Of a stretch of DNA of 64,000 nt, positions 1,106-24,817 are shown piece after piece. Position numbers and translations under genes: made by a program. A model generated the notes under the pieces. That model ran no database searches. It was not told the DNA's origin and worked only from the letters and a program-made list of their open reading frames with translations. Each line of letters starts with the position of its first letter. Within the stretch, counting starts at the first letter, position 1. Origin of the DNA: Sedimentisphaerales bacterium (GTDB lineage: Bacteria > Planctomycetota > Phycisphaerae > Sedimentisphaerales > SM23-30); assembly GCA_016934515.1 (NCBI GenBank), contig JAFGSR010000181.1, positions 3,554 to 67,553 of the forward strand. Reading direction: 5' to 3'.

Positions 1106-2869
1106 TTACAACCTTTCAATGCTCTCGGTCGGTAAGCCTGCCATCTCGTGCAGCCCGCTGCCCGAGGCCACCATCGGCCAGACATTCTCCTCCCGTTCCA
1201 CGTGAAAATCAACCACGCAGCACTGCTTCTCTTTCAGCATCCGCTCCACAATTTCCGGCACCTCAACCTTTTTCGTCGCCGTCAGTCCCACCGCCCCGAA
1301 AGCTTCGGCCACCTTGGCAAAGCTCGGGTGCTGCAAGAAACTCTTCGAATACCGTTTACCGTAAAACAGCTCCTGCCACTGCCGCACCATTCCCATGTAA
1401 CCGTTGTTCAAAACGCACACCTTCACAGGCAACTTGTGCTCCACCGCCGTGGGCAACTCGTTCAGCGTCATCGAAAAACTGCTGTCCCCGTCAAAATTAA
1501 CCACCACCTCATCAGGCATCGCAATCTGAGCGCCAATCGCCGCCGGGAATCCAAATCCCATCGTTCCCAGCCCGCCCGACGTAATAAAATGCCGCGGTCG
1601 GCTGAAACGATAAAACTGCGCCGCCCACATCTGATGCTGTCCCACACCGGTCGTTATCAACGCCTGTCCCTTCGTCTGCCGAGACACCTCTTCTATCACG
1701 TACTGAGGCTTGATGCCCTCGGTATTGTTATCATAAACCAGCGGATATTTCTGCTTCCACCCCTCAATCCGCTCGAACCAACCCGGACGATCCCGGTGCT
1801 CCACAAAATTCACCAGTTCCGTCAGAATATTCTTCGCGTCGCCCACCACCGGAATATCCACCTTGACGTTCTTGGAAATGCTCGCCGGGTCAATATCGAT
1901 ATGAATGACCTTCGCATTGGGAGCAAACCGCTTGACATCACCGGTAATCCGGTCATCGAACCGCGCTCCGATCGCCACCAGCACATCGCACTCCTGAACC
2001 GCGAAATTAGCATAAGCCGTACCATGCATCCCCAGCATGTGCAACGACTTAGGATCATTCTCATCAAAACCGCCCAAGCCCAACAGCGTCGTCGTGATCG
2101 GCACATTGGCTTTATTGACCAGCGCGGTAAGTTCCTGCGCAGCGTCCGACAAAATTACTCCGCCGCCGGCATAAATCACGGGTCGCTCAGCCGCGTTAAT
2201 CGCTTCCGCTGCCCGCTTGATCTGACGCAGGTGCCCCAACGGCCTCACCCGGTAGCCGGGCAGATCCATCTGCTGCTCCGAACCGTTAAGATTGGTCTTA
2301 GCAATCGACACATCCAGCGGCAAATCAATTAACACCGGCCCCGGACGACCTGTCCGGGCAATAAAAAACGCCTCCCGCAGCGAACGCTCCAGGTCTTTGA
2401 CATTTTTGACGATGCAGTTGTGCTTGGTAATCGGCCGGGTGATTCCCGTGGTATCGGCCTCCTGAAAGGCATCGTTACCTATCAGAGGGGTTTTGACTTG
2501 CCCGGTTATCACCACCATCGGCGTAGAATCCATGTAGGCGGTCGCTATGCCGGTCACCGTGTTCGTCGCACCGGGACCACTGGTCACCAGCACCACACCA
2601 ACCTTGCCGGTCGCACGGGCGTAGGCGTCGGCCATGTGGGTCGCGCCCTGTTCGTGCCGCGACAAAATAAAATTGATCGGACTGTCATACAAGGCATCAA
2701 AAACCGGCAAAACCACCCCGCCGGGATAGCCAAACATCGTTTCAACTCCTTCGCTGATAAGTGTTTGACAGAAAATCTCCGACCCAGTCATTTCAGGTTT
2801 TGATGCTTCTTTTGGTTTGCCGGACTTCCCACCGGCCTTTGGAGGTGTAGATAAAGACTTATCACTCAT
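1106..2869 (-). CDS. ilvB: Acetolactate synthase large (catalytic) subunit, ThDP-dependent
   Basis: 587-aa ORF. The N-terminal PYR domain reads TGSEIFCQTLISEGVETMFGYPGG. The ThDP-binding region reads GLGTMGFGFPAAIGAQ...FDGDSSFSMTLNEL...NNGYMGMVRQWQ. An AAGGAG RBS lies about 9 nt upstream of the ATG at 2869. Confidence 0.95.
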   Translation of the reverse strand: MSDKSLSTPPKAGGKSGKPKEASKPEMTGSEIFCQTLISEGVETMFGYPGGVVLPVFDALYDSPINFILSRHEQGATHMADAYARATGKVGVVLVTSGPGATNTVTGIATAYMDSTPMVVITGQVKTPLIGNDAFQEADTTGITRPITKHNCIVKNVKDLERSLREAFFIARTGRPGPVLIDLPLDVSIAKTNLNGSEQQMDLPGYRVRPLGHLRQIKRAAEAINAAERPVIYAGGGVILSDAAQELTALVNKANVPITTTLLGLGGFDENDPKSLHMLGMHGTAYANFAVQECDVLVAIGARFDDRITGDVKRFAPNAKVIHIDIDPASISKNVKVDIPVVGDAKNILTELVNFVEHRDRPGWFERIEGWKQKYPLVYDNNTEGIKPQYVIEEVSRQTKGQALITTGVGQHQMWAAQFYRFSRPRHFITSGGLGTMGFGFPAAIGAQIAMPDEVVVNFDGDSSFSMTLNELPTAVEHKLPVKVCVLNNGYMGMVRQWQELFYGKRYSKSFLQHPSFAKVAEAFGAVGLTATKKVEVPEIVERMLKEKQCCVVDFHVEREENVWPMVASGSGLHEMAGLPTESIERL

Positions 2870-5556: not shown

Positions 5557-6003
5557 CTACTTTTCGCTCTGGGTGGAATTTATCAGATCAGCAATTTTTT
5601 CGATCCATTCATCTTTAATCCAAGACAAATCATTCATTGGGATTACTCTTTTAACGGACCACCCGAAATCTTCTAATGCATATTTCATTCCATCTCCACC
5701 GTATTGATTGGTAGTGTGAATCAGGACGGGGCAATCCGGCTTGTGAGATTCAAGGAAATCAACAACATCCCGCCCCGTGCCTGGATCGAATACTCTACCA
5801 GCTCTCTCTTGGTTAGGTCCCAAATCATGATCGAGCGATATTACAGCAACTTTCTCCAGCGAGTCTCTAAGCCAGGCGATCATATCCGGAGCATTATCAA
5901 AAAAAACATAATCAAAATCAGGAAATCTTTTAGTGATTTCCTGGCGCATCATTTCCACACGTTCTGCATCATCATCAAGTATGACGATTAATTTATTGTT
6001 CAC
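5557..6003 (-). CDS. Stand-alone receiver-like domain protein resembling the cyclic-phosphate-processing receiver (cREC) family
   Basis: 148-aa ORF. It has an N-terminal acidic cluster (IVILDDDAERV), a central ISLDHDLG motif and then GTGRDVVDFL. This pattern matches what I remember of cREC-type proteins. It has no output domain. It is visibly more AT-rich than its neighbours. Confidence 0.5.
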   Translation of the reverse strand: MNNKLIVILDDDAERVEMMRQEITKRFPDFDYVFFDNAPDMIAWLRDSLEKVAVISLDHDLGPNQERAGRVFDPGTGRDVVDFLESHKPDCPVLIHTTNQYGGDGMKYALEDFGWSVKRVIPMNDLSWIKDEWIEKIADLINSTQSEK

Positions 6004-9201: not shown

Positions 9202-9419
9202 AATATCCTTTCCTGCCTTAAGTCTATAACAATTATGCAATTAGCTGATTAATCAGTTGCTAATTGCCTAAGGATAACAATTGATTTGCAGGATGATAGC
9301 AGATATTATCCAAGTGGTCAAGGTTGCCGGGCTGGGGGGATTTCCGGTTGGAAAATGTAGAAACTGGGCAAGAGGATGGGACGGACGGAAACAGAAGCTG
9401 CTATGTTGAGGAATTGCAA

Positions 9420-11060
9420 ATGATTATGTATGGAAAAGCAACTGTACCGGCTGAGTTAAGAGTTGGGAGACCGCGGTGGCATTGGATGCTGGCGGGGATG
9501 ATTTTGTTAACTTTGCCGGTGGTTGGTTATGCGAAGATTACCAAAGGGCCGATGCTGTTGCGGGTTTATCAGGATCGTGCAGCGGTTATGTGGGAAACGG
9601 ACGCGGCGGGGTCGGGGAAGGTTTTTTACGGGAAGGTGCCGGAAAAGCAAGGGGCGGGTGAATCTGCGGTGGTACTGGAGAAGCAGGTTGAATCAGATCC
9701 TATCGACATCGATTACAAGTATGAGGAGAAAGATCATCGGGTGTACATTCACAAGGTATGGCTGGAGAATCTCAAATCCGGCGTTGCTTACGAATACGCG
9801 ATTGTAGAGGGGGGATCGGCGGGGACGGGGGCGGGGCGGTATGGTTCGGGTCCTCATCGGTTCCGGACGGTGCCGAAGCATGCAGATGCGGTGCGTTTTG
9901 CGGTTTACGGGGACAGCAGATCTTTTCCCGATCGGCACCGCAAAATTGTGGAACAGATAATGAAGGCGAAGGTGGATTTTGTGGTTAATTCGGGTGATCT
10001 GGTCGGTTCCGGGATGCAATATCAGCAGTGGTCGGATGAGTTTTTTGAGCCGATGCGGGGATTGGCGGAATCGGTGCCGATCTATGCAGCCAAGGGCAAC
10101 CATGATAAAAGTTCGCAGGATTATTTTGAGAAGTTGCTGGTGCCGCCGGGGGAGAAAAATCATTTTGGATTTGAATACGGGCCGGTGAGTTACTGGTGCG
10201 GCGATCAGTATGTGGCGAAACCCGGAGAGTTGTTGGGATTGATGGCGAGATATTTTAAGGGGAAGACGGGGCAGTGGAATTTTGTATCTTTTCACGAGCC
10301 CTGTTTGAATTTTGGAGCGCATGATTCGGCATGGGGTTATCCAAACGCACTACAAAGAATTCTAGAAATGGGAGTGGATTTTCTGGTAGTGGGCCATTCG
10401 CACCTGTATGAACGATTTCGGCCTTTTTGTGGGAAAGATAAAGATGGTTCAGTGAGTTATTTGACGAGTATAACCAGTGGGGGCGGCGGAGCGCCGACGC
10501 ACGGTCCCTATCCGGTAGATTTACATGCTGCGGCCAACGAGGAGTATCATTTTTGTTTATTTGAGATAAAGGGTAACCTGCTAACTATGCAGGAGATAGA
10601 CTTAAACGGAAAAGTAATTGATTCGTTTAAGGTTTCCAAGGTTAAGGGGCGGTTGGATCCGGAATATGTATCGAATGCGGTACCGGTGGAGGAGGCTTTG
10701 CTGGTGCAGAGTTTGCAGCACAAACCGCCGTTAGCGAAACCGGTGGCGGCAAAAGATGAGCCGTTCTGGATTTTTTATGCTATATCGCTGCCTAATGCTA
10801 AAAGCGAGGTGAAGATTGATCTGGAATTGATATTTGATCCGGATAAGTATGAGATAAAGCAACCGAAACAGTCGGTGGTGGTTGGTTTGAATGAAACGGT
10901 TAAGGTTAAGTTTCTGGCAAAGGGCAAGCAGGAAGTGGAGCAAAACTGGTCAAATCCGGGGCCGATTACTCCGGCGATATGGCTGAGCTGTGAATACAAG
11001 TCCGATCAGTGGGAGGGCAGTGTGAAGTTGCCGGTGAAAGGTGAGAGGAAATTTAAATAA
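9420..11060 (+). CDS. Secreted or membrane-anchored metallophosphoesterase, purple-acid-phosphatase-like
   Basis: The ORF track starts at 9324; the ATG at 9420 is more plausible but the start remains uncertain. It has a hydrophobic signal/anchor (WHWMLAGMILLTLPVVGYA). Calcineurin-like motifs are present: FAVYGDSRS, NSGDLVGSG, KGNHD, VSFHEP, VVGHSHLYERF. Confidence 0.8.
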   Translation: MIMYGKATVPAELRVGRPRWHWMLAGMILLTLPVVGYAKITKGPMLLRVYQDRAAVMWETDAAGSGKVFYGKVPEKQGAGESAVVLEKQVESDPIDIDYKYEEKDHRVYIHKVWLENLKSGVAYEYAIVEGGSAGTGAGRYGSGPHRFRTVPKHADAVRFAVYGDSRSFPDRHRKIVEQIMKAKVDFVVNSGDLVGSGMQYQQWSDEFFEPMRGLAESVPIYAAKGNHDKSSQDYFEKLLVPPGEKNHFGFEYGPVSYWCGDQYVAKPGELLGLMARYFKGKTGQWNFVSFHEPCLNFGAHDSAWGYPNALQRILEMGVDFLVVGHSHLYERFRPFCGKDKDGSVSYLTSITSGGGGAPTHGPYPVDLHAAANEEYHFCLFEIKGNLLTMQEIDLNGKVIDSFKVSKVKGRLDPEYVSNAVPVEEALLVQSLQHKPPLAKPVAAKDEPFWIFYAISLPNAKSEVKIDLELIFDPDKYEIKQPKQSVVVGLNETVKVKFLAKGKQEVEQNWSNPGPITPAIWLSCEYKSDQWEGSVKLPVKGERKFK

Positions 11061-11103: not shown

Positions 11104-11808
11104 ATGTTTAAAGCGGTAGTGTTTGATTTTGGCCAGACGCTGGTGGATTCGGCGGACGGATTTCGTCGGGCGGAGAAGGAGGCGCAGGCGAAGATATTTG
11201 GGGATTTGGCGTTTACCGATAAGGACGAGTTTTTGAAGGGGTATCGGCGGATTCGGCGGGAATTTCACGCTCAATCGAAGCTATCGCGGGTGAAGATCTG
11301 GGAGGAAGTGTACTGGTTTTTCTGTCGTCAGGCGGATATGGAAAAGCTGATGCAGTGGGAACAGGAATACTGGCAGAGGGTGAAGGAGCTGACGCGGGTG
11401 TTCGATGAGACCGTGGGGGTGCTGGGTGAATTGCAGAGGCGTTACAAGTTGGCGTTGGTGACGAATACACAGGGGCAAAGAAGCGGGAATGAACACCGAA
11501 TCAGTTTGTATCCGGAGCTGGAGAAGTTTTTTGAGGTGGTGGTAGTGGCGGGTGAAGGTGGGATTCCAGCTAAGCCGAGGATTGAGGCGTTTTCGGTGTG
11601 TCTGGAGCAGTTGAAGGTGTCGGCGGCGGAGGCGGTGTATGTGGGAGATGATTATCGCAACGATGTCGAAGGGGCAACGGCGGCGGGGATGAAGGCGGTG
11701 TGGCTGAAGCATCATTCGGTGGTGCGGAACTGGCCTGACGTAGAGCCGGAGGTGCCGGTGATAAGCAGTTTGGAAGAGTTGCTGGATTTGGAGAAAATTT
11801 TTAGTTAA
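11104..11808 (+). CDS. HAD-IA superfamily hydrolase (haloacid-dehalogenase-like motif I)
   Basis: 234-aa ORF. Motif I is VVFDFGQTLVD, motif II is LALVTNT, and motif IV is YVGDDYRNDVEGATAAGM. Confidence 0.8.
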   Translation: MFKAVVFDFGQTLVDSADGFRRAEKEAQAKIFGDLAFTDKDEFLKGYRRIRREFHAQSKLSRVKIWEEVYWFFCRQADMEKLMQWEQEYWQRVKELTRVFDETVGVLGELQRRYKLALVTNTQGQRSGNEHRISLYPELEKFFEVVVVAGEGGIPAKPRIEAFSVCLEQLKVSAAEAVYVGDDYRNDVEGATAAGMKAVWLKHHSVVRNWPDVEPEVPVISSLEELLDLEKIFS

Positions 11809-11890: not shown

Positions 11891-12048
11891 AAGATGGTTT
11901 TGAAATCCTAAACCCTAAATTCTAAACAAATTCAAAATTCTAGTTCCCTAAAACAGAAAACCGAATGAATGCGGCGGGCAGGGCCCACCCAACGGCGAAA
12001 TGCCGGATGCGCAGGTGAATAACTGCAGTGAAAGATTATGGAGGCTTG

Positions 12049-13530
12049 ATGAGTTCAAAAAAGGTGATGAATTATGTGGGCGGTGAGTGGGTGGAGCCGG
12101 AAAATGGTGGATGGCTGGACGTGGAGAATCCATCGACGGGGGAGGTGATTGGTCAATGTCCGTTATCGACCAGGGCGGCAGTGGACAGTGCGATTGAGGC
12201 GGCGGCGGGGGCTTATCCGGAATGGTCGCGGACGCCGGTGGCGCGTCGGGCGCAGTACATGGCGAAGCTAGCGGAGCTGTTGCGGGAGAATGAGGAGGCG
12301 CTGACCCGGGTAATGACCTTGGAGAACGGTAAGTCTTTGCCAGACGCCCAGGCGGAAGTGAAGCGGGCGTTGGAGAACTGCGAAGTGGCGAGTGGGATGC
12401 CGACGCTGATTCAGGGTGTCAAGGTGATGGGCTGTTCGTTTGGGATCGACGGTGAGGTGCTGCGGCTGCCGGTGGGGGTTTTTGGGATGATAGCACCGTT
12501 TAATTTTCCGGCGATGGTGCCGTTCTGGTTTTTGCCTTATGCGTTGGCGGCGGGCAATGCGATGGTGGTTAAGGCATCGGAGCAGGTGCCGCTGTCGATG
12601 CAGTTTGTGGGTGAGTTGATTGATCAGACGGGATTGCCGGCAGGAGTTTTCAGTTTGATTAACGGGGACCGGACGGCGGCGGAAGCGTTGGTGGCTAATC
12701 CGAATATTAAAGGGATTTCGCTGGTGGGCAACAGCAAGACCTGTCGGGTGGTGGGGCGAAAATGTGCCGAGGGCGGGAAGCGATTTTTGGGGATGGGCAG
12801 CGCGAAGAATCATCTGGTGGTGATGCCGGACGCGAAGGTGGATGAGGTGATTCGTAACATGATAACGTCCTGTTACGGTTGCGCGGGACAGCGGTGCATG
12901 GCATCGTCGGCGATAGTGGCGGTGGGCAGGGAGATGTACGAGAGAATCTGTGAGAAGTTTGTGTCGGCATCGCGGGAAGTGATTGTGGCCAATCCGCTGG
13001 ACGAGGTGGTGGCGGGCGAGGCGATGGTGATGGGGCCGGTGATTTCGGCACGGTCGAAGGAATTTATTCTTAGCATGATTGAAAAGGGATGCGCCGAGGG
13101 AGCGCATTTGGCATTGGACGGGCGGGGTCTGGTGGTGAAAGGGTGTGAGCAGGGTCATTTTGTCGGTCCGACGGTGTTTACGGATGTGAAGCCGGGTATG
13201 GCGGTGCACCGCACGGAGATTTTTGGGCCGGTGGTGGTGATTTTACAGGCGGAGACTCTGGACGAGGCGATTGGGATTATTAACGAGCACGAATACGGCA
13301 ACGGAGCTTCGATTTATACCCAGAACGGTTACTGGGCGCGGAAGTTCAAGCTGGAGACTTTGTGCGGGATGATTGGAGTGAATGTGGGGATTCCGGCGCC
13401 GGTGGCGTATCTGCCGTTTGGGGGGATGAAGGAGTCGCTGTTTGCGGACATTAAGGCTCAGAGCAGGTCGGTGATTGATTTTTATACGGAGAGCAAGGTG
13501 ATTACGGAGAGATATTGGCAGGAACAATAG
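12049..13530 (+). CDS. mmsA: CoA-acylating methylmalonate/malonate-semialdehyde dehydrogenase family
   Basis: The ORF track starts at 12028. The ATG at 12049 has a GGAGG 6 nt upstream (MSSKKVMNYVGGEW...). Family hallmarks are APFNFPAMVPFW and the catalytic-Cys block GCAGQRCMASS. Confidence 0.85.
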   Translation: MSSKKVMNYVGGEWVEPENGGWLDVENPSTGEVIGQCPLSTRAAVDSAIEAAAGAYPEWSRTPVARRAQYMAKLAELLRENEEALTRVMTLENGKSLPDAQAEVKRALENCEVASGMPTLIQGVKVMGCSFGIDGEVLRLPVGVFGMIAPFNFPAMVPFWFLPYALAAGNAMVVKASEQVPLSMQFVGELIDQTGLPAGVFSLINGDRTAAEALVANPNIKGISLVGNSKTCRVVGRKCAEGGKRFLGMGSAKNHLVVMPDAKVDEVIRNMITSCYGCAGQRCMASSAIVAVGREMYERICEKFVSASREVIVANPLDEVVAGEAMVMGPVISARSKEFILSMIEKGCAEGAHLALDGRGLVVKGCEQGHFVGPTVFTDVKPGMAVHRTEIFGPVVVILQAETLDEAIGIINEHEYGNGASIYTQNGYWARKFKLETLCGMIGVNVGIPAPVAYLPFGGMKESLFADIKAQSRSVIDFYTESKVITERYWQEQ

Positions 13531-13731: not shown

Positions 13732-15120
13732 TTAGTCGCGGCCCCATTTTTCGAAATATGAACCGAAAATTTCATCATCGGTGGGAACGTATTCCTCGGT
13801 GGGTACGGAAAGCCAGGTGTAATTGAGGAATTGTTTCCAGTTGATGTTGTCGCTGGTCATGTTACCGGCCCAGGTGCCGCAGCCGAGGGTGTCGGTGAAG
13901 GGCTGGCCGTTGAACCAGCTGCCGCTGTTGGCCATGGCGTGGGGCATGTTGCAGTTGACGCGACCGACGTTGGCTTTGAGGCCCATTTCGAGTTGGCGTT
14001 CGCGGTTGAGGCTGTGTATGGAGGCGGAGTGACCTTCGCCGCTGAACTTTTGCATGAGCTTCATGCGTTCGATCATTTCGCTGAAATCGGTCCATTTCCA
14101 GACGGTCAGGACGGGAGAGATTTTTTCGCCACTGAAGCGGTCTTCGGGACCGGGTTTTTCGCCGATAACCATGAGGAAACGGGTGCCGGCGGGAACGGAG
14201 ATACCGGCGGCGGCGGCGATGACGGGAGCGGGTTTGGCGACGACGTCGCGGTTGAGGGAGTGACCATCGGGCCACATGTAGGTGCGGAGTTTTTCGCGTT
14301 CTTCGGTGGAGCAAAGGTAGCCACCTTCGCCCTTGAAGCACTCGATCATTTCATCGTAAACGCTGGCTTCGATGGCCACGGCATTTTCGGAGGAGCAGGA
14401 AGCGGAGTTGTTGGCGCATTTGGACTTGATGATTTTGGCGGCGGTGGATTTGATATCGACGGTTTCGTCAATGATGGAGATGACGTTACCGGCGCCAACG
14501 GTGTGAGCGGGTTTGCCGGCTTCGTAAACGACTTTGACCAGTGCGGCGCCACCGGTGGCGACGGCGAAATCACAGCCATTCATGAGTTCGCGGGTTTTTT
14601 CCTTACTGGTGTTTTTGATGCACTGGATGAGGTCTTCGGGGGCACCGATTTTTTTGAGTGCGGCGCGGCCGATTTCACAAGTGCGATAGGTGGACTTTTG
14701 GGTGCGGGGGTGAGGAGTTACGATTTGGGCGTTGCGGGTTTTTAGAATGTTGACGCCGAGCGCGCAGACGGTGGATTCCGGATTGGTGCAGGGCACGACG
14801 TTGGCGATGACGCCGATGGGTTTGGCGAATTTGACGATGCCGATTTCGGGAAGCTCTTCGACGATTCCGCAGGTTTTTGCATTACGCATGTCCCAGAGGG
14901 AGCCTTTGGTTTTGGACTGGATTTTACCGACTTTGTCTTCGTAAACGCCGATGCCGGATTCATCGACGGCCAGGCGGGCGAGTTCTTTGGCGGTTGACTC
15001 TTTGGACCACTCGTACCCGACGGCCAGAACCATTTCGTCGACCTTATCCTGAGGCCAATACTCGATAGTTTCGAAAGCCTTGCGGGCCTTTTTGTACATT
15101 TCCTGAATATTATCTTCCAT
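13732..15120 (-). CDS. CoA-acylating aldehyde dehydrogenase (AdhE-N / SucD / SauS-like family)
   Basis: The ORF track starts at 15204. The ATG at 15120 (MEDNIQEMYKKARKAFE...) has a GGAGG about 12 nt upstream. The protein has a VVPCTNPEST block and an active-site Cys context NNSASCSSENAV (compare the F-D-N-G-x-x-C-x-S-E-Q type). It is the last gene of the operon. Confidence 0.8.
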   Translation of the reverse strand: MEDNIQEMYKKARKAFETIEYWPQDKVDEMVLAVGYEWSKESTAKELARLAVDESGIGVYEDKVGKIQSKTKGSLWDMRNAKTCGIVEELPEIGIVKFAKPIGVIANVVPCTNPESTVCALGVNILKTRNAQIVTPHPRTQKSTYRTCEIGRAALKKIGAPEDLIQCIKNTSKEKTRELMNGCDFAVATGGAALVKVVYEAGKPAHTVGAGNVISIIDETVDIKSTAAKIIKSKCANNSASCSSENAVAIEASVYDEMIECFKGEGGYLCSTEEREKLRTYMWPDGHSLNRDVVAKPAPVIAAAAGISVPAGTRFLMVIGEKPGPEDRFSGEKISPVLTVWKWTDFSEMIERMKLMQKFSGEGHSASIHSLNRERQLEMGLKANVGRVNCNMPHAMANSGSWFNGQPFTDTLGCGTWAGNMTSDNINWKQFLNYTWLSVPTEEYVPTDDEIFGSYFEKWGRD

Positions 15121-15273: not shown

Positions 15274-16338
15274 TTAATCAAGTTTTTTCCCAACGCTTTT
15301 AACGCCGGTTTTTTTGCTGGGATCTTCGATCTCTTCATGGATGCGATAGCCGGTGCCGAATATTTTTTGGCGTTCCTGGAAGGCCTGATTCCATTGATCG
15401 GGAGTATGGATCTGAGCGGGCTGGGCGTTTTTATCCCGTTCTTCGAGAGAGGGGACCGGGCGATCATCCGGGCCGTCGTAGATATCTTTGGGAGTCAGGG
15501 CCTGGCCGAGGCGGGTGTAGCCGTTTTCGGCGATATCGCGTTCAACTTCCTCGATGTAATGAGCACCGGCAGCGAAAGAGCGAGTGACAGCGAGGATGGC
15601 CCAGGTGGCTTCGGGCGAGAAGCCGAGGTCCATCATTACCGCCCCGGTAGCGCCGAGCATGTCGATATCGACCGGTTCGGAAGAAGCTTGTTGAGCGGCG
15701 GCGACGACCTCTTTCATGAAAGCGATGTTTTTGCCGGCTACGCCGAGTTTTTCGGCGTGAGCAATCATGCGTTTGGCGGCGGGGTCTTTGAGCATCAGGC
15801 TGGAGACCCCCAGGGACTCATCGTTGAGGTTGTCCTGGACGAGGAGTTTGGCCATTTCGGCGGTGGATTTGCCTTCTTGTTCGGCATGGTTGAGAAATTC
15901 TTCCAAGCGATTACCGAAAGCAGAGTAAGCGCCAAAGGCATGTCCGAAAGCCAGGATGGAAGCCCCGCAGGCCTGGGTAAGGAAGGTTTTGGATTGCGCT
16001 ACCATACGGGACATCAGCACAGGCATGGACAGGCCGTCCTCAAAAGAGAGAATCATTACGTAGTTTAGCATCTGCTCTTCTTCGACGAGCGGAATGCGGG
16101 ACTGGAAATCTACAAAGAGCACATCCGTAATGCCGTAACCTTCTTCCATCAGTTCGGTGGTATCGTAGCCGCGGGCCACGATGCGATGAACATTTTTGTA
16201 TGCTACTTCGGAGACCCACTGGAAAGGAGCCCGTTTGGTATCCAAGGGGACCGTGCCATATTCGCGTTTGCTGTAATCGTAAGGCATCTTGGGACTGTCA
16301 AGATTGCCAATTCCTTTTTTATCTCCTAAATCACCCAT
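15274..16338 (-). CDS. Citrate-synthase / citryl-CoA-lyase-fold protein, paralog B (His motifs degenerate)
   Basis: 354-aa ORF. The N-terminus reads IVARGYDTTELMEEGYGITDVLFVDFQSRIPLVEEEQMLNYVMILSFEDGLS, which is the citrate-synthase-family small-domain pattern. The C-terminus reads PVDIDMLGATGAVMMDLGFSPE...AVTRSFAAGAHYIEE. Its ATG overlaps the upstream gene by 13 nt; an alternative ATG is at 16287. Confidence 0.65.
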   Translation of the reverse strand: MGDLGDKKGIGNLDSPKMPYDYSKREYGTVPLDTKRAPFQWVSEVAYKNVHRIVARGYDTTELMEEGYGITDVLFVDFQSRIPLVEEEQMLNYVMILSFEDGLSMPVLMSRMVAQSKTFLTQACGASILAFGHAFGAYSAFGNRLEEFLNHAEQEGKSTAEMAKLLVQDNLNDESLGVSSLMLKDPAAKRMIAHAEKLGVAGKNIAFMKEVVAAAQQASSEPVDIDMLGATGAVMMDLGFSPEATWAILAVTRSFAAGAHYIEEVERDIAENGYTRLGQALTPKDIYDGPDDRPVPSLEERDKNAQPAQIHTPDQWNQAFQERQKIFGTGYRIHEEIEDPSKKTGVKSVGKKLD

Positions 16339-17222
16339 TGTTTGTACTCTCCTTGTTCTTTCTGGTTTTTGGCATATTCCTGACGTTCACTTTGCTTTGG
16401 AACACGACGGTCTTCGGGTCCGATGTACTTGATCATGCTGAGATCGATCATCTGGACCATGGGCTCGTTGCGGGAGGCGCCCCAGGCGCGGCCGCGTTTC
16501 ATATTGTAGATGGCGTGTGCGGCGCAACTAAACCCACGGCAGACGCTACCGATGCACCAGGCAGCATTGGGTGCGAAACCGATATCGCACAGAGCGGTAT
16601 TTCCGGAACCGACGACGTTGACGCCGACATAGGAACGTCCTTCGGCTTTGCGGCGGGCGTGGAAGTGTTTTTCGACGGCGCGTTGGAATTCGAGGTAAAC
16701 CCCCTGGACGCCGAGTTCTTCCTGTTTAACATGTATGGGTTCGGCACGGGGGTCGCTGTCGATGTGCTGTGGCTGTCCCATTCCCATGACGGGTGTTTTG
16801 TTGTCGAGGTATTCATCGACCAGGATTTTGGCCATTTCGTCGAGAGATTTTCCTTCTTTGTGGGCGCGGTCGAGATATTTGTTGAGCATGTAGCCATGCG
16901 CAGCCCCGGGACCATGTACGCCACCAAAAGTCATGATGGAGGCGGCAATGGCACAAGGCAGATTAGGCCGACCGGTTATAACGCCGATGGCACCAGCAGC
17001 GGAAGGCGACATGGAATGCTCCAGAAAAACGCCCATTTCGTACTTAAGCATTTTTTCTTCGGCGGCGGTGGGGATGCGGTTCTGGAACAACACAAACATA
17101 GCATCGCAGAAAGAATAACCTTTTTCAGCGAGGTCGCTGAGGTTGTACCCGCGCAAGACAGTTTTTTCTTCTGTCTTGTACGAGATCGACGTTTTTCTGC
17201 GAAATAGTGGATCCCTGTTCAT
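16326..17222 (-). CDS. Citrate-synthase / citryl-CoA-lyase-fold protein, paralog A
   Basis: 298-aa ORF. The sequence TSISYKTEEKTVLRGYNLSDLAEKGYSFCDAMFVLFQNRIPTAAEEKMLKYEMGVFLEHSMSPS resembles citryl-CoA lyase and citrate synthase. GGVHGPGAAHG corresponds to GPLHGGANE. VMGMGQPQHIDSDPRA corresponds to GFGHRVYKxxDPRA. Confidence 0.7.
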   Translation of the reverse strand: MNRDPLFRRKTSISYKTEEKTVLRGYNLSDLAEKGYSFCDAMFVLFQNRIPTAAEEKMLKYEMGVFLEHSMSPSAAGAIGVITGRPNLPCAIAASIMTFGGVHGPGAAHGYMLNKYLDRAHKEGKSLDEMAKILVDEYLDNKTPVMGMGQPQHIDSDPRAEPIHVKQEELGVQGVYLEFQRAVEKHFHARRKAEGRSYVGVNVVGSGNTALCDIGFAPNAAWCIGSVCRGFSCAAHAIYNMKRGRAWGASRNEPMVQMIDLSMIKYIGPEDRRVPKQSERQEYAKNQKEQGEYKQWVI

Positions 17223-20204: not shown

Positions 20205-21605
20205 TTAGCGCATTTTGTCAGGGGCTCTTATTATAATTCTTTTCAGGCACTGTTCGATAATGTTCAGGGCCTGGTCCATCTGTTCGACGGTAATAGTCAA
20301 CGCCGGGGTCAAGGTCAGGATATTTGACATGGTAACTTTAAAGCTGAGGCCTTTGCCAAGAGCGGCATACATCATTTTGTCAGCCAGGTCAGGTGCCGGT
20401 TGGTTTGAAACCTGATCGTGGACAATTTCCAATCCCAGCAGCAGTCCGATGCCGCGGACGGGACCGACATGAGAGTGATTTTTTTGCATTTGGCGCAGAC
20501 GGTCGAGAGCGTGGCTGCCGATTTTAGCGGCGTTTTCACAAAGGTGCTTTTCTTCGACGAATTCGATGGCAGCCAGTGCGGCGGCACAGGCAACGGGATT
20601 TTTTTCGTGGGTGTAGTGGCCCAGAGCCCGATCGCCGGCGACAGCCAGGTGTTCGCGGGCGAGAACGGCGGCATGAGGGAAGATACCGCCACCGAGGCCT
20701 TTGCCAATGACGAGGATGTCCGGGACGATGTCAAAGTGTTGGCAGGTGAACATTTTGCCGGTGCGGCCGAGGCAGTGAGGGATTTCGTCGAGAATGAGCA
20801 AGGCGTCGTGCTTGTCGCAAATCTGTCGGATTTTTTTCCAATATTTCTGTGAGGGAACCGATGAGGTGCTGCGGACGGTTTCGGCGATAAAGGCGGCGAC
20901 ATCGCCTTCCTTTTCCATGATGTAATCGACGTAATCGGCACACTTGAGGTTGCAGTTATCCCGGCAGTCCCAGAAGCAGCGTGGGCAATCGGGCGGCGGA
21001 ACGTGTTCGGTGCCGGGCAGGAGTGGTCCGACATCTTTGCGGAAGATGGTTTCACCGCCAACGCTGATCGCATCGAGCGAAGCACCATGGAAGGAATCCC
21101 AAGTGGAAATGGTTTTAAACCGGCCGGTGGCATAGCGGGCGAGTTTCAGAGCGATACCCATGGCGGAGGTGCCACCGGGAGCGAACAATACTTTGTTGAG
21201 ATCGCCGGGTGCCAAAGCGGTGAGCTTTTCGGCAAGCTTGATGGCGGGGATGTTGGTGTAACGTCGTGTGCAAAAGGGTAGCTCGTCGAGTTGGTCTTTG
21301 ATGGCCTGGATAACGCGCTGATTGCCAAAGCCAACCTGATGGACATTGTTGCCGTGGAAATCCATGTAGCGTCGTCCCTGAAGGTCCTGGAGATAAATAC
21401 CATCGCAGCGTTCCAGCACGTTCAGGCAGGGTGTGGAGAGTGACTGATGGAGGAAGAATTTTGCGTCGGCTTCGAGCCATTTTCGGGTTTGGGCATCGAT
21501 GTTGTTGCGGGACCAATCCGCACGGCGTGGGGAAATGTTCAAGTCGCCTTCTGATTGTAGCGTGATAAGCTGGTCATTTTTTTTCGGCACCAAAGGCATG
21601 ATCAA
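20205..21605 (-). CDS. Class-III (omega) aminotransferase-fold PLP enzyme
   Basis: 466-aa ORF with blocks FAPGGTSAMGIALKLAR, LILDEIPHCLGRTGKMF and the PLP-Lys context VIGKGLGGGIFP. It lies only 24 nt downstream of the PhnX-like gene. Confidence 0.85.
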   Translation of the reverse strand: MIMPLVPKKNDQLITLQSEGDLNISPRRADWSRNNIDAQTRKWLEADAKFFLHQSLSTPCLNVLERCDGIYLQDLQGRRYMDFHGNNVHQVGFGNQRVIQAIKDQLDELPFCTRRYTNIPAIKLAEKLTALAPGDLNKVLFAPGGTSAMGIALKLARYATGRFKTISTWDSFHGASLDAISVGGETIFRKDVGPLLPGTEHVPPPDCPRCFWDCRDNCNLKCADYVDYIMEKEGDVAAFIAETVRSTSSVPSQKYWKKIRQICDKHDALLILDEIPHCLGRTGKMFTCQHFDIVPDILVIGKGLGGGIFPHAAVLAREHLAVAGDRALGHYTHEKNPVACAAALAAIEFVEEKHLCENAAKIGSHALDRLRQMQKNHSHVGPVRGIGLLLGLEIVHDQVSNQPAPDLADKMMYAALGKGLSFKVTMSNILTLTPALTITVEQMDQALNIIEQCLKRIIIRAPDKMR

Positions 21606-21629: not shown

Positions 21630-22358
21630 TCAGGAAAATTCACTTTCGATCAGCGCCGGCAGCTCTCTGACGCTGGGGATGACATGGGTGTGATAATATT
21701 TTCCCCAAGCTTCGACCGGTCGGGGTCCGCTGAGCACCCCGACGATGCCGCGGCAGCCGGCGTTACGACCTTCCAGCATATCCGCCGGGGTGTCGCCGAT
21801 CTTGATTACTTCGTGTACGCTCTGGATACCCAACTGGGCCATGGCGTAAAAGATCATGAAGGGTGCGGGCCGGCCCATTTCGCCGACGACGTGTTCGACA
21901 TCCACGGAGAGATCGACCAGACCGTCGCGAACCCAACCCAGGCCGTCCATGATGGCTTCGGTTATGTCGCGATGGAAACCGGTGTCGGTTGCTACCTTAA
22001 TGCCGTTATCGTGGCACCAACGGAAGCAGTCGGCGGCACCGGGTACCTCTTTGACTTCTTTACGGTAGTGGTTGATCATGATTTCTGAGTAGCGGTTAAA
22101 CACCTTTACCGCTTCTTCATGGGTGTCGGGATCCTTGACTTTTTCAAAATCTTCGATCGCGATTTTCTTACCTTTTGATCGGGCGATAAGAAACTGATAA
22201 AGGTGTATTTTGTTCGTGCCCATGTGCAACAGAATTTCTTCCGGGGTGGTATTGAGATTGTGTTCCTGGGCCGCTTTATAAAGGCAGTCTCTCACCCCCG
22301 TGTCATCATAAACAGTGGTTCCGGAAAGATCAAACATCACCATGCTAATCTTGCTCAT
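21630..22358 (-). CDS. phnX: Phosphonoacetaldehyde-hydrolase-like HAD enzyme (PhnX-like)
   Basis: The ORF track starts at a TTG at 22379. The ATG at 22358 has a GGAG 6 nt upstream (MSKISMVMFDLSGTTVYD). Motif I is D-L-S-G-T, with a small residue at D+2 as in the PhnX motif D-W-A-G-T. HMGTNKIH aligns with the PhnX Schiff-base-Lys segment PMGLLKIDH. GRPAPFM and KIGDTPADMLEGRNAG align with the PhnX segments GRPYPWM and KVGDTVSDMKEGRNAG (Bacillus PhnX recalled from memory). Confidence 0.75.
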   Translation of the reverse strand: MSKISMVMFDLSGTTVYDDTGVRDCLYKAAQEHNLNTTPEEILLHMGTNKIHLYQFLIARSKGKKIAIEDFEKVKDPDTHEEAVKVFNRYSEIMINHYRKEVKEVPGAADCFRWCHDNGIKVATDTGFHRDITEAIMDGLGWVRDGLVDLSVDVEHVVGEMGRPAPFMIFYAMAQLGIQSVHEVIKIGDTPADMLEGRNAGCRGIVGVLSGPRPVEAWGKYYHTHVIPSVRELPALIESEFS

Positions 22359-22474
22359 TTTTTTCTCCAGGTTCTCCAATCAGGTTTTTACCACTTATTC
22401 AGATTCAAATTCTTTTGACCCATTAGTGCCTAAGCTAAAGTGTTTTTGACAATTTTTTGGTCGTTGCCGGAGAA

Positions 22475-23578
22475 TTACGGCACGACAATAGGTCTTATCG
22501 ATTCGCGTTTCTCCAAGGACTCCAGCGCCGCGGTTACTCCCGCCGCAGTCAAGGGAAATTCAGGACCGGTCAGCTTCCGGTAGGGATACCTCTGTCGGCT
22601 GCGATGCACCAGGTCCAGCGCCAGCCCCAAATAGCGGGAATCGTAGTTGTGCAGGCCCATGATAGTCAGACACTTAATAATCACGTCATGCGAGGCCAGG
22701 GTAAAAAGGTCGTCGGGATACACGCTGCCCTGTAGTAGATAGCGACCACCGATACGCAGCATCTTAACTCCCACAGGAATCACCTGGGCGAATCCCGCCA
22801 CTTCCACCACCAGGTCAGCTCCCCAGCCGTCGGTCAGGTCTTTAACCTGGCTGACCACTTCTTCGTCACCCAAGCCCTGGACGTTAAGGCAGTGATCGGC
22901 GCCAAATTCCCGGCCCACCTCCAACCGTTTGTCTAGGATATCGACCATGATTACCTGCTTGGCCCCCTGCTCTTTAGCCAGGGCCGCAGCGTACAAGCCC
23001 AACATCCCCGCCCCCTGGATTACCACGTTTTCCCCGGGCTGCAAGCCGATCCGAGCCAGCCCCGCCGTCACCGTGGCCGCGGCACACATGAGCGGTGAGA
23101 CCTCCTCATCAGCCATATCATCCGGCACTTTGAATACACTCGTGCCGGGCTTGACATACACATACTCGCCAAACGTGCCCATGAAATAGGGCGGCACATC
23201 GCTTTTGACATGGCCGTACTTAAATAGATTAAGGCACTTCTGCGGTAGCGAGTGAATCCGGCAAAAGCAGCAGTAACCGCAATTGGCCATGATTGCCCAG
23301 GTGATACGGTCACCCACTGCCAGGGATTTGCCCGTCGTGTCCTTTTCCACGCCGGAGCCCATCTGGGCGATGGTTCCCAGCCCTTCATGGCCCAGTATCG
23401 AAGGAGTAGGAAAGGGTCGGCGCCCCCGCCAACTGTGCATATCCGAGCCGCATACCGTAGCCATGGTGGTCTTCACCAGGATTGCCCCCGGCTCCAACTC
23501 TTCCGGAAGAGGAAAGCTATGCTCTTCCAGAGGTTTTCCTACCCCCATAAACATAACTACCTTGCCTGTCTTACCCAT
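22475..23578 (-). CDS. Zinc-dependent medium-chain alcohol dehydrogenase (phosphonate-catabolism-associated type)
   Basis: 367-aa ORF with zinc ligand blocks CGSDMH and GHEGLG, structural-zinc cysteines CGYCCFC, and the Rossmann motif VVIQGAGMLGLYAA. It sits between phnW and the PhnX-like gene, an arrangement recognised for this ADH clade (TIGRFAMs description, from memory). Confidence 0.85.
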   Translation of the reverse strand: MGKTGKVVMFMGVGKPLEEHSFPLPEELEPGAILVKTTMATVCGSDMHSWRGRRPFPTPSILGHEGLGTIAQMGSGVEKDTTGKSLAVGDRITWAIMANCGYCCFCRIHSLPQKCLNLFKYGHVKSDVPPYFMGTFGEYVYVKPGTSVFKVPDDMADEEVSPLMCAAATVTAGLARIGLQPGENVVIQGAGMLGLYAAALAKEQGAKQVIMVDILDKRLEVGREFGADHCLNVQGLGDEEVVSQVKDLTDGWGADLVVEVAGFAQVIPVGVKMLRIGGRYLLQGSVYPDDLFTLASHDVIIKCLTIMGLHNYDSRYLGLALDLVHRSRQRYPYRKLTGPEFPLTAAGVTAALESLEKRESIRPIVVP

Positions 23579-23683: not shown

Positions 23684-24817
23684 TTATAGGAGTTTAAGGC
23701 CCATTTCTTTGATTACATCGCGGATAGCGCCGAGGAGGTCCCTGACGTCAGAAGCAGAAATTCGGCCGATATTTCCGATTCGGAAGCAGTCGGCGTTGCT
23801 TACTTTTCCGGGATAAATCACGTAGTCTCTTTCATTAAGGGCTTCATAGAATTTTTCAAAGCTGAAGTTTGGATCTTTCGGATACCGGAAAGAAGTAATG
23901 ATGTAGCCCTGGACTTTTTGGTCGAGATATTCTTCGAAGCCCATTTTGCGCATGCCTTTGACGAGGGTTTCGTAATTGTTGCGATAGCGGGCAGCGCGAG
24001 CTTCGACGCCGCCTTCGGCATCAAGCTCCAGCAGGGCCTGGTAAAAAGCCAGCATCGCGTGGGTTGGTGGGGTAAAGCGGAACTGTCCGTTGGCTTCGAG
24101 GCCCTTGTACTGGGCACAAAGATCGAAAGAGAGGCTGCGAGCGTTGCCTTCGGTTTCGAGCAAGGAGCTGATCTTGGCAATGACGAAGGAAAAGCCGGGC
24201 ACGCCTTCGATGCATTTGTTGGCCGAGGATACCAGGTAATCGATGTTGCACTCGGCGAGGTTGGTAGGAACCGCACCAAAGCAGCTCATGGCATCGACGA
24301 AGAACTTTGCCCCGGCGGCTTTGACGATGGCGCCAACTTCCTTGATGGGATTCATGATACCGGTGGTGGTTTCACAATGGGTAATGGCGACATTGGTGAT
24401 GTTGGGGTCGGATTTGAGTTTGGCCTGGATCTGGGCCGGGTCGGGAGTCTGGTCTTCGGGGAATTCCATGGTTTCGAAATCGATCTTGAGTACTGATGCG
24501 ATTTTGGCGATACGGTGGCCGTAAGCACCGTTGATGACAACCAGGAGTTTGCCGTCCTGAGGAACATAGCAGCCGATGACCGCTTCGAGAGCGTAAGTGC
24601 CGCAACCCTGGAGGGGGACGGTAGTGTATTCGTCAGAGGTTGCCTGTCCGGCCTTGAGCAGCAGTTCACGGATGCCCTTGATGACACCGATGAATTCAAA
24701 ATCTCTGGAACCCAGGTCGCGAAGCATAGCTTGTTTGACCTTTGGGCTGGTGGTGAGAGGTCCGGGTGTGAAGAGGATTTTATCTTTCCAGCCGGGAATT
24801 TTCGTATTGGTTTTCAT
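23684..24817 (-). CDS. phnW: 2-aminoethylphosphonate:pyruvate aminotransferase
   Basis: 377-aa ORF. The N-terminus ILFTPGPLTTSPKVKQAMLRDLGSRDFEF and the PLP-Lys block YLVSSANKCIEGVPG are typical of PhnW. An AAAGGAG RBS lies upstream of the ATG at 24817. Confidence 0.9.
   Translation of the reverse strand: MKTNTKIPGWKDKILFTPGPLTTSPKVKQAMLRDLGSRDFEFIGVIKGIRELLLKAGQATSDEYTTVPLQGCGTYALEAVIGCYVPQDGKLLVVINGAYGHRIAKIASVLKIDFETMEFPEDQTPDPAQIQAKLKSDPNITNVAITHCETTTGIMNPIKEVGAIVKAAGAKFFVDAMSCFGAVPTNLAECNIDYLVSSANKCIEGVPGFSFVIAKISSLLETEGNARSLSFDLCAQYKGLEANGQFRFTPPTHAMLAFYQALLELDAEGGVEARAARYRNNYETLVKGMRKMGFEEYLDQKVQGYIITSFRYPKDPNFSFEKFYEALNERDYVIYPGKVSNADCFRIGNIGRISASDVRDLLGAIRDVIKEMGLKLL

Follow-up and report, generated by a model that had tools for sequence, protein, structure and literature searches.

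What reaction could be carried out by two citrate-synthase-like proteins that are encoded by overlapping genes, neither of which has the full catalytic triad of citrate synthase? The question is raised by a stretch of 64,000 nucleotides from a Sedimentisphaerales bacterium of the Planctomycetota (assembly GCA_016934515.1, contig JAFGSR010000181.1, positions 3,554 to 67,553 of the forward strand; hereafter, the window), in which two such genes, referred to here as A and B, lie on the minus strand upstream of a gene for a coenzyme A (CoA)-acylating aldehyde dehydrogenase. Homology, residue patterns and gene linkage, on which all functional claims below are based, suggest that A and B form a heteromeric enzyme of the citrate synthase/citryl-CoA lyase (CCL) fold, which may have given up Claisen chemistry on oxaloacetate and could instead cleave the carbon-phosphorus (C-P) bond of phosphonoacetyl-CoA in a CoA-dependent catabolism of 2-aminoethylphosphonate (AEP). 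We put the probability of this reading at about one half.

An overlapping pair of citrate synthase paralogs

Paralog A (16326..17222, minus strand) is an open reading frame of 298 amino acids encoding a CCL-like protein that we propose to be the catalytic subunit, and paralog B (15274..16338, minus strand) is an open reading frame of 354 amino acids encoding a CCL-like protein with a degenerate active site and conserved extensions at the N- and C-terminus, which we propose to be its non-catalytic partner. The 13 nucleotides shared by the two genes (ATGGGTGATTTAG, 16326..16338, minus strand) comprise the end of A, including its stop codon, and the start of B; within ATGGGTGATTTAG, A terminates W-V-I-stop and B begins M-G-D-L, and an AAGGAG sequence lies approximately 10 nucleotides 5' of the B start. 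A first-pass annotation, made from the letters of the window alone, had described both the two open reading frames and their overlap. The coordinates and the sequence agree with that description, and all six motifs quoted in it are found where it placed them. It also held the proteins to be paralogs, which is supported by BLASTP (34% identity, E 1e-46) and by hhalign (probability 99.95%). A scan of the operon region for promoters and terminators gave counts that were close to, or below, those expected from shuffled sequence.

Both proteins can be placed in the citrate synthase/CCL superfamily by sequence homology, as the first-pass annotation had proposed; matches to Pfam, to NCBIfam and to the profile of a solved structure all lead to this placement. 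A scores 54.1 bits against Pfam PF00285 (cut-off 27), with the match falling in the C-terminal catalytic region, while B, at 22.8 bits, lies under the cut-off, and either protein can be aligned only to approximately positions 165-352 of the 357 in that model, which correspond to the C-terminal catalytic region of citrate synthase. Against the CCL subfamilies of NCBIfam, A reaches an E value of 8e-33 and a best score of 113.8 bits (cut-off 212), and B an E value of 4e-29 with subfamily NF004868 and a best score of 101.6 bits (cut-off 193), so that the curated citryl-CoA lyase cut-offs are reached by neither. Among solved structures, both come closest to the CCL of Hydrogenobacter (PDB 6hxp), which the family profiles match with E values of 4e-21 (A) and 3e-12 (B). 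In Pfam and NCBIfam, A and B matched families of the citrate synthase type only, with no homology to PhnX (HAD), PhnA (alkaline phosphatase) or PalA (phosphoenolpyruvate (PEP) mutase/isocitrate lyase); the sole other match, of B to a CopG-like ribbon-helix-helix domain, was weak and sub-threshold. By homology A and B are members of the superfamily, but considering that their scores lie below all of the curated cut-offs and that the Asp375 and His320 features discussed below are missing, they should not be filed as citryl-CoA lyases.

The pair is widespread and is largely hidden by its annotation. In a scan of one genome per species, 149 genomes matched A, and the 80 loci that were fetched (81 with the window) come from at least eight phyla, with representatives in the Planctomycetota, the Desulfobacterales (many), Verrucomicrobiota, Chloroflexota, Bacteroidota, Spirochaetales, Latescibacterota, Gemmatimonadota and Hyphomicrobiales. 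Relatives of A number in the hundreds, at 81-88% identity, and across the fetched loci (L005-L084) the identity of A ranges from 80 to 87%; B likewise has hundreds of relatives, at 74-80% identity and with a mean column identity of 81%, and the relatives of both are annotated as either "hypothetical" or "citrate synthase". When 1.84 billion representatives clustered at 50% identity were searched, 435 clusters matched A at E <= 1e-3 and 28 at E <= 1e-30. The A clade is small and tight.

B directly follows A in all 74 loci in which enough sequence is available, and the 13-nucleotide overlap is retained in 70 of 73. The three exceptions are all from Gemmatimonadota, in which a spacer of 49-62 nucleotides separates the genes and B has its own Shine-Dalgarno sequence. 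An overlap kept in 70 of 73 independent loci is not a matter of chance. The pair thus looks like an obligate, translationally coupled heteromer, and the suggestion of coupling made from this single locus gains considerably from the comparison. Among the genes that accompany the pair A is the most constrained, with a mean pairwise divergence of 0.148 as compared with 0.26 for both B and the dehydrogenase, and the distance matrices of the three genes correlate (r 0.70-0.80, with 0.80 for A and B). The genes therefore seem to spread horizontally as a unit, with very strong purifying selection acting on A.

Active-site columns of A and B

To which chemistry is such a pair suited? Residues of A and B were assigned to columns (numbered here as in pig citrate synthase) by phmmer, by profile hmmsearch against PDB chains, by MAFFT alignment with distant relatives and by hhalign, all of which agree on the register, and the columns were then tabulated in 87 representative CCL-like proteins. 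In citrate synthase, His274, His320 and Asp375 are all supplied by the same subunit, and Asp375 serves as the base, forming the enolate through deprotonation.

The site of A is modified but looks functional. His69 (17016..17018, minus strand), aligned through an EH..N motif and invariant in the A family, occupies the column of His238 at the oxaloacetate/citrate site, and His103, within the motif GGVHGPGAAHG (16893..16925, minus strand; aligned to 6hxp and 2c6x), is the equivalent of the enolate-stabilizing His274 and is likewise invariant. The first-pass annotation had matched the histidine motifs of A to the catalytic histidines of citrate synthase, which is correct for this first motif and incorrect for the second: in GMGQPQHIDSDPRA (16743..16784, minus strand), which aligns with MGFGHRVYKTKDPRAE of 2c6x, the His320 column is occupied by Gln150, and the histidine of GMGQPQH (His153) lies three residues further on. 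A G(H/Q)PxH motif with its histidine at this +3 position is widespread among the non-canonical CCL-like proteins in the table. The same stretch of A contains Arg159, the equivalent of Arg329. The motif NVVGSG (16602..16619, minus strand) aligns with LNVDGAI of 6hxp and puts Val204 in the Asp375 column, in keeping with the earlier remark that NVVGSG stands at the site of the catalytic aspartate. Throughout the A clade this column holds V, I, L, P or A, as opposed to D in most of the superfamily. With Asn202 in the Asn373 column and Arg229 in the Arg401 column, A retains the equivalents of His238, His274, Arg329 and Arg401 and carries Gln and Val at His320 and Asp375, respectively. His109, His153 and Asp155 are also invariant in A.

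B, on the other hand, has what looks like a pseudo-site, since Arg253 in the Arg401 column is the only one of these six equivalents (His238, His274, His320, Arg329, Asp375 and Arg401) that it retains. Asp101, invariant in the B family, replaces His238. Phe135, in the motif LAFGHAFGAYSAFG (15913..15954, minus strand; placed by phmmer, profile and hhalign alignments), replaces His274, and in most homologs this residue is Tyr (family consensus GHAYGAY), with a histidine, His133 in B, two residues before it. Val178, just 5' of the motif SSLMLKDPAAKR (15769..15804, minus strand), stands in the His320 column, and by alignment of the same motif Arg329 is replaced by Ala187 (DPA for DPR). B has indeed lost the catalytic histidines, as had been noted. 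In the motif PVDIDMLGA (15649..15675, minus strand), four alignments concur in placing Asp226 in the Asn373 column and Leu228 in the Asp375 column. Asp at His238, Tyr or Phe at His274 and Asp at Asn373 are the signatures of the B clade in the table of 87 proteins.

These assignments bear directly on the model put forward in the first-pass annotation, in which A and B carry complementary halves of the triad and together rebuild a complete citrate synthase/CCL site for carbon-carbon chemistry. That neither protein has the full triad is correct; we looked for a complete triad in a single subunit and found none. The model draws some support from the His274 equivalent in A, from two invariant aspartates of B near the catalytic-Asp loop and from the coupling of the genes. 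The halves, however, do not complement each other: the aspartate of PVDIDMLGA that was taken for the catalytic one is Asp226, which aligns with a near-invariant Asn two residues before the catalytic position, so that neither subunit has an Asp in the Asp375 column and B has no triad residue in register. Neither subunit has a histidine in the His320 column, B lacks the oxaloacetate-binding His238 and Arg329 equivalents, and the genetic context is that of phosphonate catabolism rather than of the tricarboxylic acid (TCA) cycle or its reverse. Moreover, a triad split between subunits would not rebuild the site, given that a single subunit of citrate synthase supplies all three residues. The alignments contradict this model, which we reject as extremely unlikely. 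The loss of the canonical triad points to a different chemistry, and the genes around the pair suggest where to look.

Phosphonate genes around the pair and a possible route to acetyl-CoA

The cassette that recurs among the 81 loci consists of A, B, an AEP aminotransferase, the acylating dehydrogenase and a HAD-family hydrolase, referred to here as HAD2. An aminotransferase of the PhnW or AepZ type is present in 39 of 48 loci, with none nearby in some others (Gemmatimonadota and L091). In the window it is PhnW, the 2-aminoethylphosphonate:pyruvate aminotransferase that makes phosphonoacetaldehyde (23684..24817, minus strand; NCBIfam equivalog, 495 bits, cut-off 296); the Desulfobacterales enzyme is approximately 34% identical to it and passes the PhnW-AepZ equivalog (413 vs. 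360.8 bits). The window also encodes PbfA (20205..21605, minus strand; NCBIfam equivalog, 700 bits, cut-off 525), the function of which is described in PMC8154272. Other recurrent neighbors are three components of the AEP ABC transporter, of which PhnS2 and PhnT2 score above their cut-offs and the third is PhnU2; LysR regulators; a membrane protein annotated as "phosphonate utilisation associated"; and a GlpT/PgtP-like MFS transporter from the family of the AEP permease AepP. Among the recurrent neighbors in the surroundings of the cassettes there is no gene for PhnX, PhnY, PhnA or C-P lyase. A and B are thus co-localized with genes for making phosphonoacetaldehyde and for importing AEP, as in an AEP catabolic cluster, and it is this linkage to PhnW, PhnW-AepZ, PbfA and AEP transporters, together with the lack of a known C-P-cleaving enzyme among the recurrent genes, that argues for a place of the pair in a phosphonate pathway. 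Sulfate reducers with PhnW-type genes but without PhnX have been described (PMC4046663).

Phosphate transporters adjoin several of the cassettes, namely a PHO4/PiT protein with PhoU_div (L091, 12971-14560), a Na/Pi cotransporter-PhoU protein (L085, 8639-9774) and, in seven loci, a PiT/CysP-like transporter (cluster c13). Their presence fits the release of excess phosphate when AEP serves as a carbon or nitrogen source.

The dehydrogenase (13732..15120, minus strand; 462 amino acids from a conserved MEDNIQEMY start, which was picked by comparison of homologs) is proposed to be an acylating phosphonoacetaldehyde dehydrogenase. It lies within 5 kb downstream of A in 51 of 52 loci, and so the earlier suggestion of a repurposed acyl-CoA enzyme next to a CoA-acylating aldehyde dehydrogenase appears to hold well beyond the window. 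Its best solved relative is the acetylating succinate-semialdehyde dehydrogenase 8cei (E 9e-88), and its best NCBIfam match is the acylating sulfoacetaldehyde dehydrogenase SauS. The substrate of SauS, sulfoacetaldehyde, is the sulfonate analogue of phosphonoacetaldehyde. The pathway could therefore start from another anion-substituted C2 or C3 aldehyde, for instance taurine-derived sulfoacetaldehyde or beta-alanine-derived malonate semialdehyde, in which case A/B would remove sulfite from sulfoacetyl-CoA or CO2 from malonyl-CoA. Apart from the match to SauS, this would be in line with the CoA-acylating methylmalonate-semialdehyde dehydrogenase found near the cassette in the window and in L009, and with some loci, from Gemmatimonadota and L091, in which no aminotransferase is nearby. 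The SauS match, however, misses its cut-off (479 vs. 600 bits), whereas the linked equivalogs PhnW, PhnW-AepZ, PbfA, PhnS2 and PhnT2 are specific to phosphonates, several cassettes are bordered by genes for phosphate transporters and PhoU-like proteins, and no taurine or sulfite genes were seen. A sulfonate reading was also tried by way of the thiamine diphosphate enzyme of the window (1106-2869) and rejected, as this enzyme is an acetolactate synthase and not Xsc. On balance, we regard a substrate other than a phosphonate as very unlikely.

If the substrate is a phosphonate, three steps would lead from AEP to acetyl-CoA. First, AEP or (R)-hydroxy-AEP would be converted to phosphonoacetaldehyde by the PhnW/AepZ-type aminotransferases or by PbfA, a step that follows from annotation at the equivalog level. 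Second, the SauS/SucD-like dehydrogenase, the closest relatives of which act on anion-bearing aldehydes, would convert phosphonoacetaldehyde to phosphonoacetyl-CoA. Finally, A/B would cleave the C-P bond of phosphonoacetyl-CoA to yield acetyl-CoA and phosphate. The cleavage would resemble that by CCL in that X-CH2-CO-SCoA loses the substituent of its alpha-carbon, with the resulting acetyl-CoA enolate stabilized by His103 of A and the phosphonate held in the former oxaloacetate pocket by His69, Arg159 and Arg229 of A. A thioester serves as an electron sink no less well than do the Schiff base of PhnX and the ketone of phosphonopyruvate hydrolase, and Asp375 would be dispensable because the enolate arises by bond cleavage rather than by deprotonation. 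Candidates for the activation of water or the protonation of the enolate are His109, His153 and Asp155 of A, or residues donated by B. Most likely, B is a structural or regulatory, non-catalytic partner that would be made 1:1 with A through the conserved overlap, although its acidic cluster of Asp101, Asp224 and Asp226 may point to a separate role, e.g., in metal binding. A role of the pair as a biosynthetic condensing enzyme for phosphonates was also considered and rejected, since the pair lacks a catalytic base and is surrounded by genes of catabolism and transport.

A variant of the cassette suggests that the same acyl-CoA could be reached by another route. The closest out-group of A is P0241 (here A'), which is 60% identical to it and is found in locus L085, in the order LysR, A', B', CoA-transferase alpha and beta subunits, HpnZ-like alcohol dehydrogenase, ferredoxin, aldehyde:ferredoxin oxidoreductase and Na/Pi cotransporter-PhoU, with B' overlapping A' by 22 nucleotides. 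Here, the aldehyde:ferredoxin oxidoreductase and the CoA-transferase take the place of the acylating dehydrogenase, such that the aldehyde would be oxidized to the acid and CoA would then be transferred to it, for which acetyl-CoA, the product of A'/B', would be the natural donor. The alcohol dehydrogenase could oxidize 2-hydroxyethylphosphonate to phosphonoacetaldehyde. A further variant, L091, comprises A, a divergent B, the dehydrogenase, a HAD protein, LysR and PHO4/PhoU_div. More distant CCL-like proteins that lack the Asp also occur as adjacent unequal pairs (352 and 287 amino acids), one with the His274 equivalent and one without it. In L087 (4210-6184) such a CCL-like pair accompanies an acyl-CoA dehydrogenase and a two-subunit CoA-transferase, and in L088 (3401-6496) and L089 the pair lies between a CoA-transferase and an aldehyde dehydrogenase. 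Because of these CoA-transferase and dehydrogenase neighbors, the whole clade can be expected to act on acyl-CoA substrates, and the paired, Asp-less CCL-like proteins are probably acyl-CoA lyases.

HAD2 provides the main alternative to C-P cleavage by A/B. This CTE7/YjjG-like hydrolase is usually the fifth gene of the cassette and lies on the opposite strand in the window (11104..11808, plus strand). Its homologs (46-60% identity) follow the dehydrogenase in 34 of 46 loci. In motif I (DFGQT), the Asp+2 general acid is replaced by Gly in 39 of the 46 homologs and is Asp in four, and the cap contains many invariant Arg and His residues. PhnX, a HAD-type C-P hydrolase, likewise has no Asp+2, with Ala in that position, and HAD2 in these respects recalls PhnX and is unusual for a plain phosphatase. 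It is therefore conceivable that HAD2 cleaves the C-P bond, either of phosphonoacetaldehyde or of phosphonoacetyl-CoA, its cap being suited to a polyanionic substrate, and that A/B has another task on the acyl-CoA, e.g., in thioester hydrolysis, CoA recycling or condensation of the resulting acetyl-CoA. We think this unlikely for several reasons. HAD2 is the least tightly linked gene of the cassette, absent within 7 kb in 12 of the 46 loci and from the visible part of L085, and this looser linkage suggests an accessory protein. In NCBIfam it matches ordinary phosphatases such as CTE7/YjjG, with PhnX missing from the best 25, and its best solved relative is N-acylneuraminate-9-phosphatase. Cleavage by HAD2 would furthermore leave A and B, the most conserved and always present genes, without a necessary role, and would make the CoA-transferase of L085 pointless if the acid or aldehyde were already dephosphonylated.

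A second possibility involving HAD2 is that A/B isomerizes phosphonoacetyl-CoA to an O-phosphoryl enol thioester, in a shift of the phosphoryl group from carbon to oxygen like that of PEP mutase, and that HAD2 then hydrolyzes this product or a kinase harvests its phosphate; A/B would thus break the C-P bond and the HAD enzyme would free the phosphate. Such a scheme would give every gene of the cassette a role, would suit a HAD enzyme without a general acid to a substrate with a good leaving group and would fit the enolate-stabilizing His that is kept in A. The chemistry, however, is without precedent among enzymes of the citrate synthase fold, not every locus has HAD2 and no kinase is conserved in the cassette, and so we hold this scheme to be quite unlikely.

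In the window, HAD2 is flanked by two further genes of the plus strand, for a purple-acid-phosphatase-like metallophosphoesterase (9324-11060) and for the CoA-acylating methylmalonate-semialdehyde dehydrogenase mentioned above (12028-13530; 472 bits, above cut-off). A dehydrogenase 69% identical to the latter follows HAD2 in L009, and this enzyme may belong to the cassette as a loosely associated accessory.

The remaining genes of the window operon lie upstream of A. The order on the minus strand is PhnW, an HpnZ-like Zn alcohol dehydrogenase (22475-23578; TIGR03366, 302 bits, below cut-off), a PhnX-like HAD hydrolase (21630-22379; TIGR03351, 170 bits, below cut-off), PbfA, two MtmB-family genes, A, B and the acylating dehydrogenase. 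The PhnX-like hydrolase and the alcohol dehydrogenase recur as a pair in L016, L059 and L074, forming an accessory phosphonate sub-module. In all, the hydrolase was found only in the window and in four other loci, in three of which it lies beside the alcohol dehydrogenase and in the fourth at a contig end; in Desulfobacterales loci the protein is approximately 80% identical. The tandem MtmB-family genes (monomethylamine methyltransferase, PF05369; 17265-18629 and 18696-20069, both minus strand; Pfam E 6.5e-76 and 1.2e-86) are located between PbfA and A, as they are in the Planctomycetota loci L005, L006 and L007. They have no in-frame stop and hence no pyrrolysine, NCBIfam gives no match to them, and a corrinoid partner was not seen in the scanned parts of the window; that they demethylate N-methylated AEP is a guess. 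The small product of a gene elsewhere in the window (5557-6003, minus strand) contains a "cyclic-phosphate processing receiver" (cREC_REC) domain and appears unrelated to the cassette.

Several observations weigh against C-P cleavage by A/B. Asp101, His133, Asp224 and Asp226 of B are invariant in its family, which is more than would be expected of a purely structural subunit. HAD2, which like PhnX lacks Asp+2, could be the C-P-cleaving enzyme instead, and in the window and the four other loci with the PhnX-like hydrolase a conventional phosphonatase step may be possible. AlphaFold2 models built from shallow family alignments of 24 sequences had confidence (pLDDT) values of only 49 (A) and 50 (B), too low to be of use, and were all-helical, which agrees with expectation but is non-diagnostic. 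Finally, in the literature that we searched, phosphonoacetyl-CoA is not reported as a natural metabolite and appears only as a hypothetical compound in a preprint on biosynthesis. Nor did that search find a description of such a CoA-dependent phosphonate pathway, and no route that depends on CoA is given in a 2023 review of phosphonate degradation.

Relation to known enzymes and pathways

Among natural phosphonates, AEP is the most abundant; to our knowledge, only a handful of enzyme types that break C-P bonds are known. We tentatively suggest, with confidence a little short of even, that A/B founds a new C-P-cleaving class, a "phosphonoacetyl-CoA phosphonohydrolase" of the citrate synthase fold, which would constitute a fourth, CoA-dependent hydrolytic route carried by the surveyed anaerobic sediment bacteria (Desulfobacterales, Planctomycetota and others), which are reported to be without PhnX. 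If this is true, AEP can be degraded by an unrecognized CoA-dependent route that gives acetyl-CoA directly, which would be useful to anaerobes because the energy of the thioester is kept. This would also explain how AEP can be used by those sulfate reducers and planctomycetes in which PhnW-type genes occur without a phosphonatase. Hundreds of proteins of this widespread, unannotated cassette that are labeled "citrate synthase" or "hypothetical" would gain a function, and the citrate synthase fold would prove to be convertible from carbon-carbon (C-C) to C-P cleavage. The paired Asp-less CCL-like clade beside CoA-transferases could then represent a family of X-acetyl-CoA lyases with several substrates.

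Comparison with known systems shows which parts of this proposal have precedent. The best solved matches of the pair, the Ccl of Hydrogenobacter thermophilus (6hxp) and the CCL module of ATP-citrate lyase (6hxj and 6qcl), share its fold family and approximate size, and the reaction proposed for A/B has the same form as theirs, in that a substituent of the alpha-carbon is lost from an acyl-CoA and acetyl-CoA is left. In A/B, however, the catalytic Asp is replaced by Val (A) or Leu (B) and the second His by Gln (A) or Val (B), and while CCL is a homo-oligomer of the reductive TCA cycle, A/B would be a heteromer of two diverged paralogs in a context of phosphonate catabolism. With citrate synthase and 2-methylcitrate synthase (PF00285), A shares the C-terminal catalytic region and the equivalents of His238, His274, Arg329 and Arg401, but A and B are only about 300-350 amino acids long, and, having neither the catalytic base nor His320, they are not expected to condense acetyl-CoA with an oxo-acid.

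The known routes through PhnX or through PhnY and PhnA share the upstream steps of the cassette (PhnW, PbfA and AEP transporters) and follow the same logic, in which the C-P bond is made cleavable by a carbonyl beta to the phosphorus. They differ in how that carbonyl is activated, which occurs through a Schiff base in PhnX and a metal-bound carboxylate in PhnA, as against the CoA thioester proposed for A/B, and in their products, which are acetaldehyde and acetate, respectively, rather than acetyl-CoA. The closest characterized relatives of the cassette dehydrogenase, SauS and SucD (8cei), each act on an aldehyde with an anionic group, interconverting it with the corresponding CoA thioester; the cassette enzyme is linked to phosphonate genes rather than to those for sulfonates or succinate, and it scores below the SauS equivalog cut-off. 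Finally, the CoA-transferase and A'/B' of L085 suggest the same two-step cycle as is seen with CitF (acyl-transferase) and CitE (lyase) of citrate lyase, in which the acid is exchanged for the acetyl group on the thiol carrier and the lyase then restores the acetyl thioester. This is a resemblance of logic, since the proteins are unrelated (CitE being of the HpcH/HpaI type), and L085 would use free CoA in place of the prosthetic group of an acyl-carrier protein and would break a C-P rather than a C-C bond.

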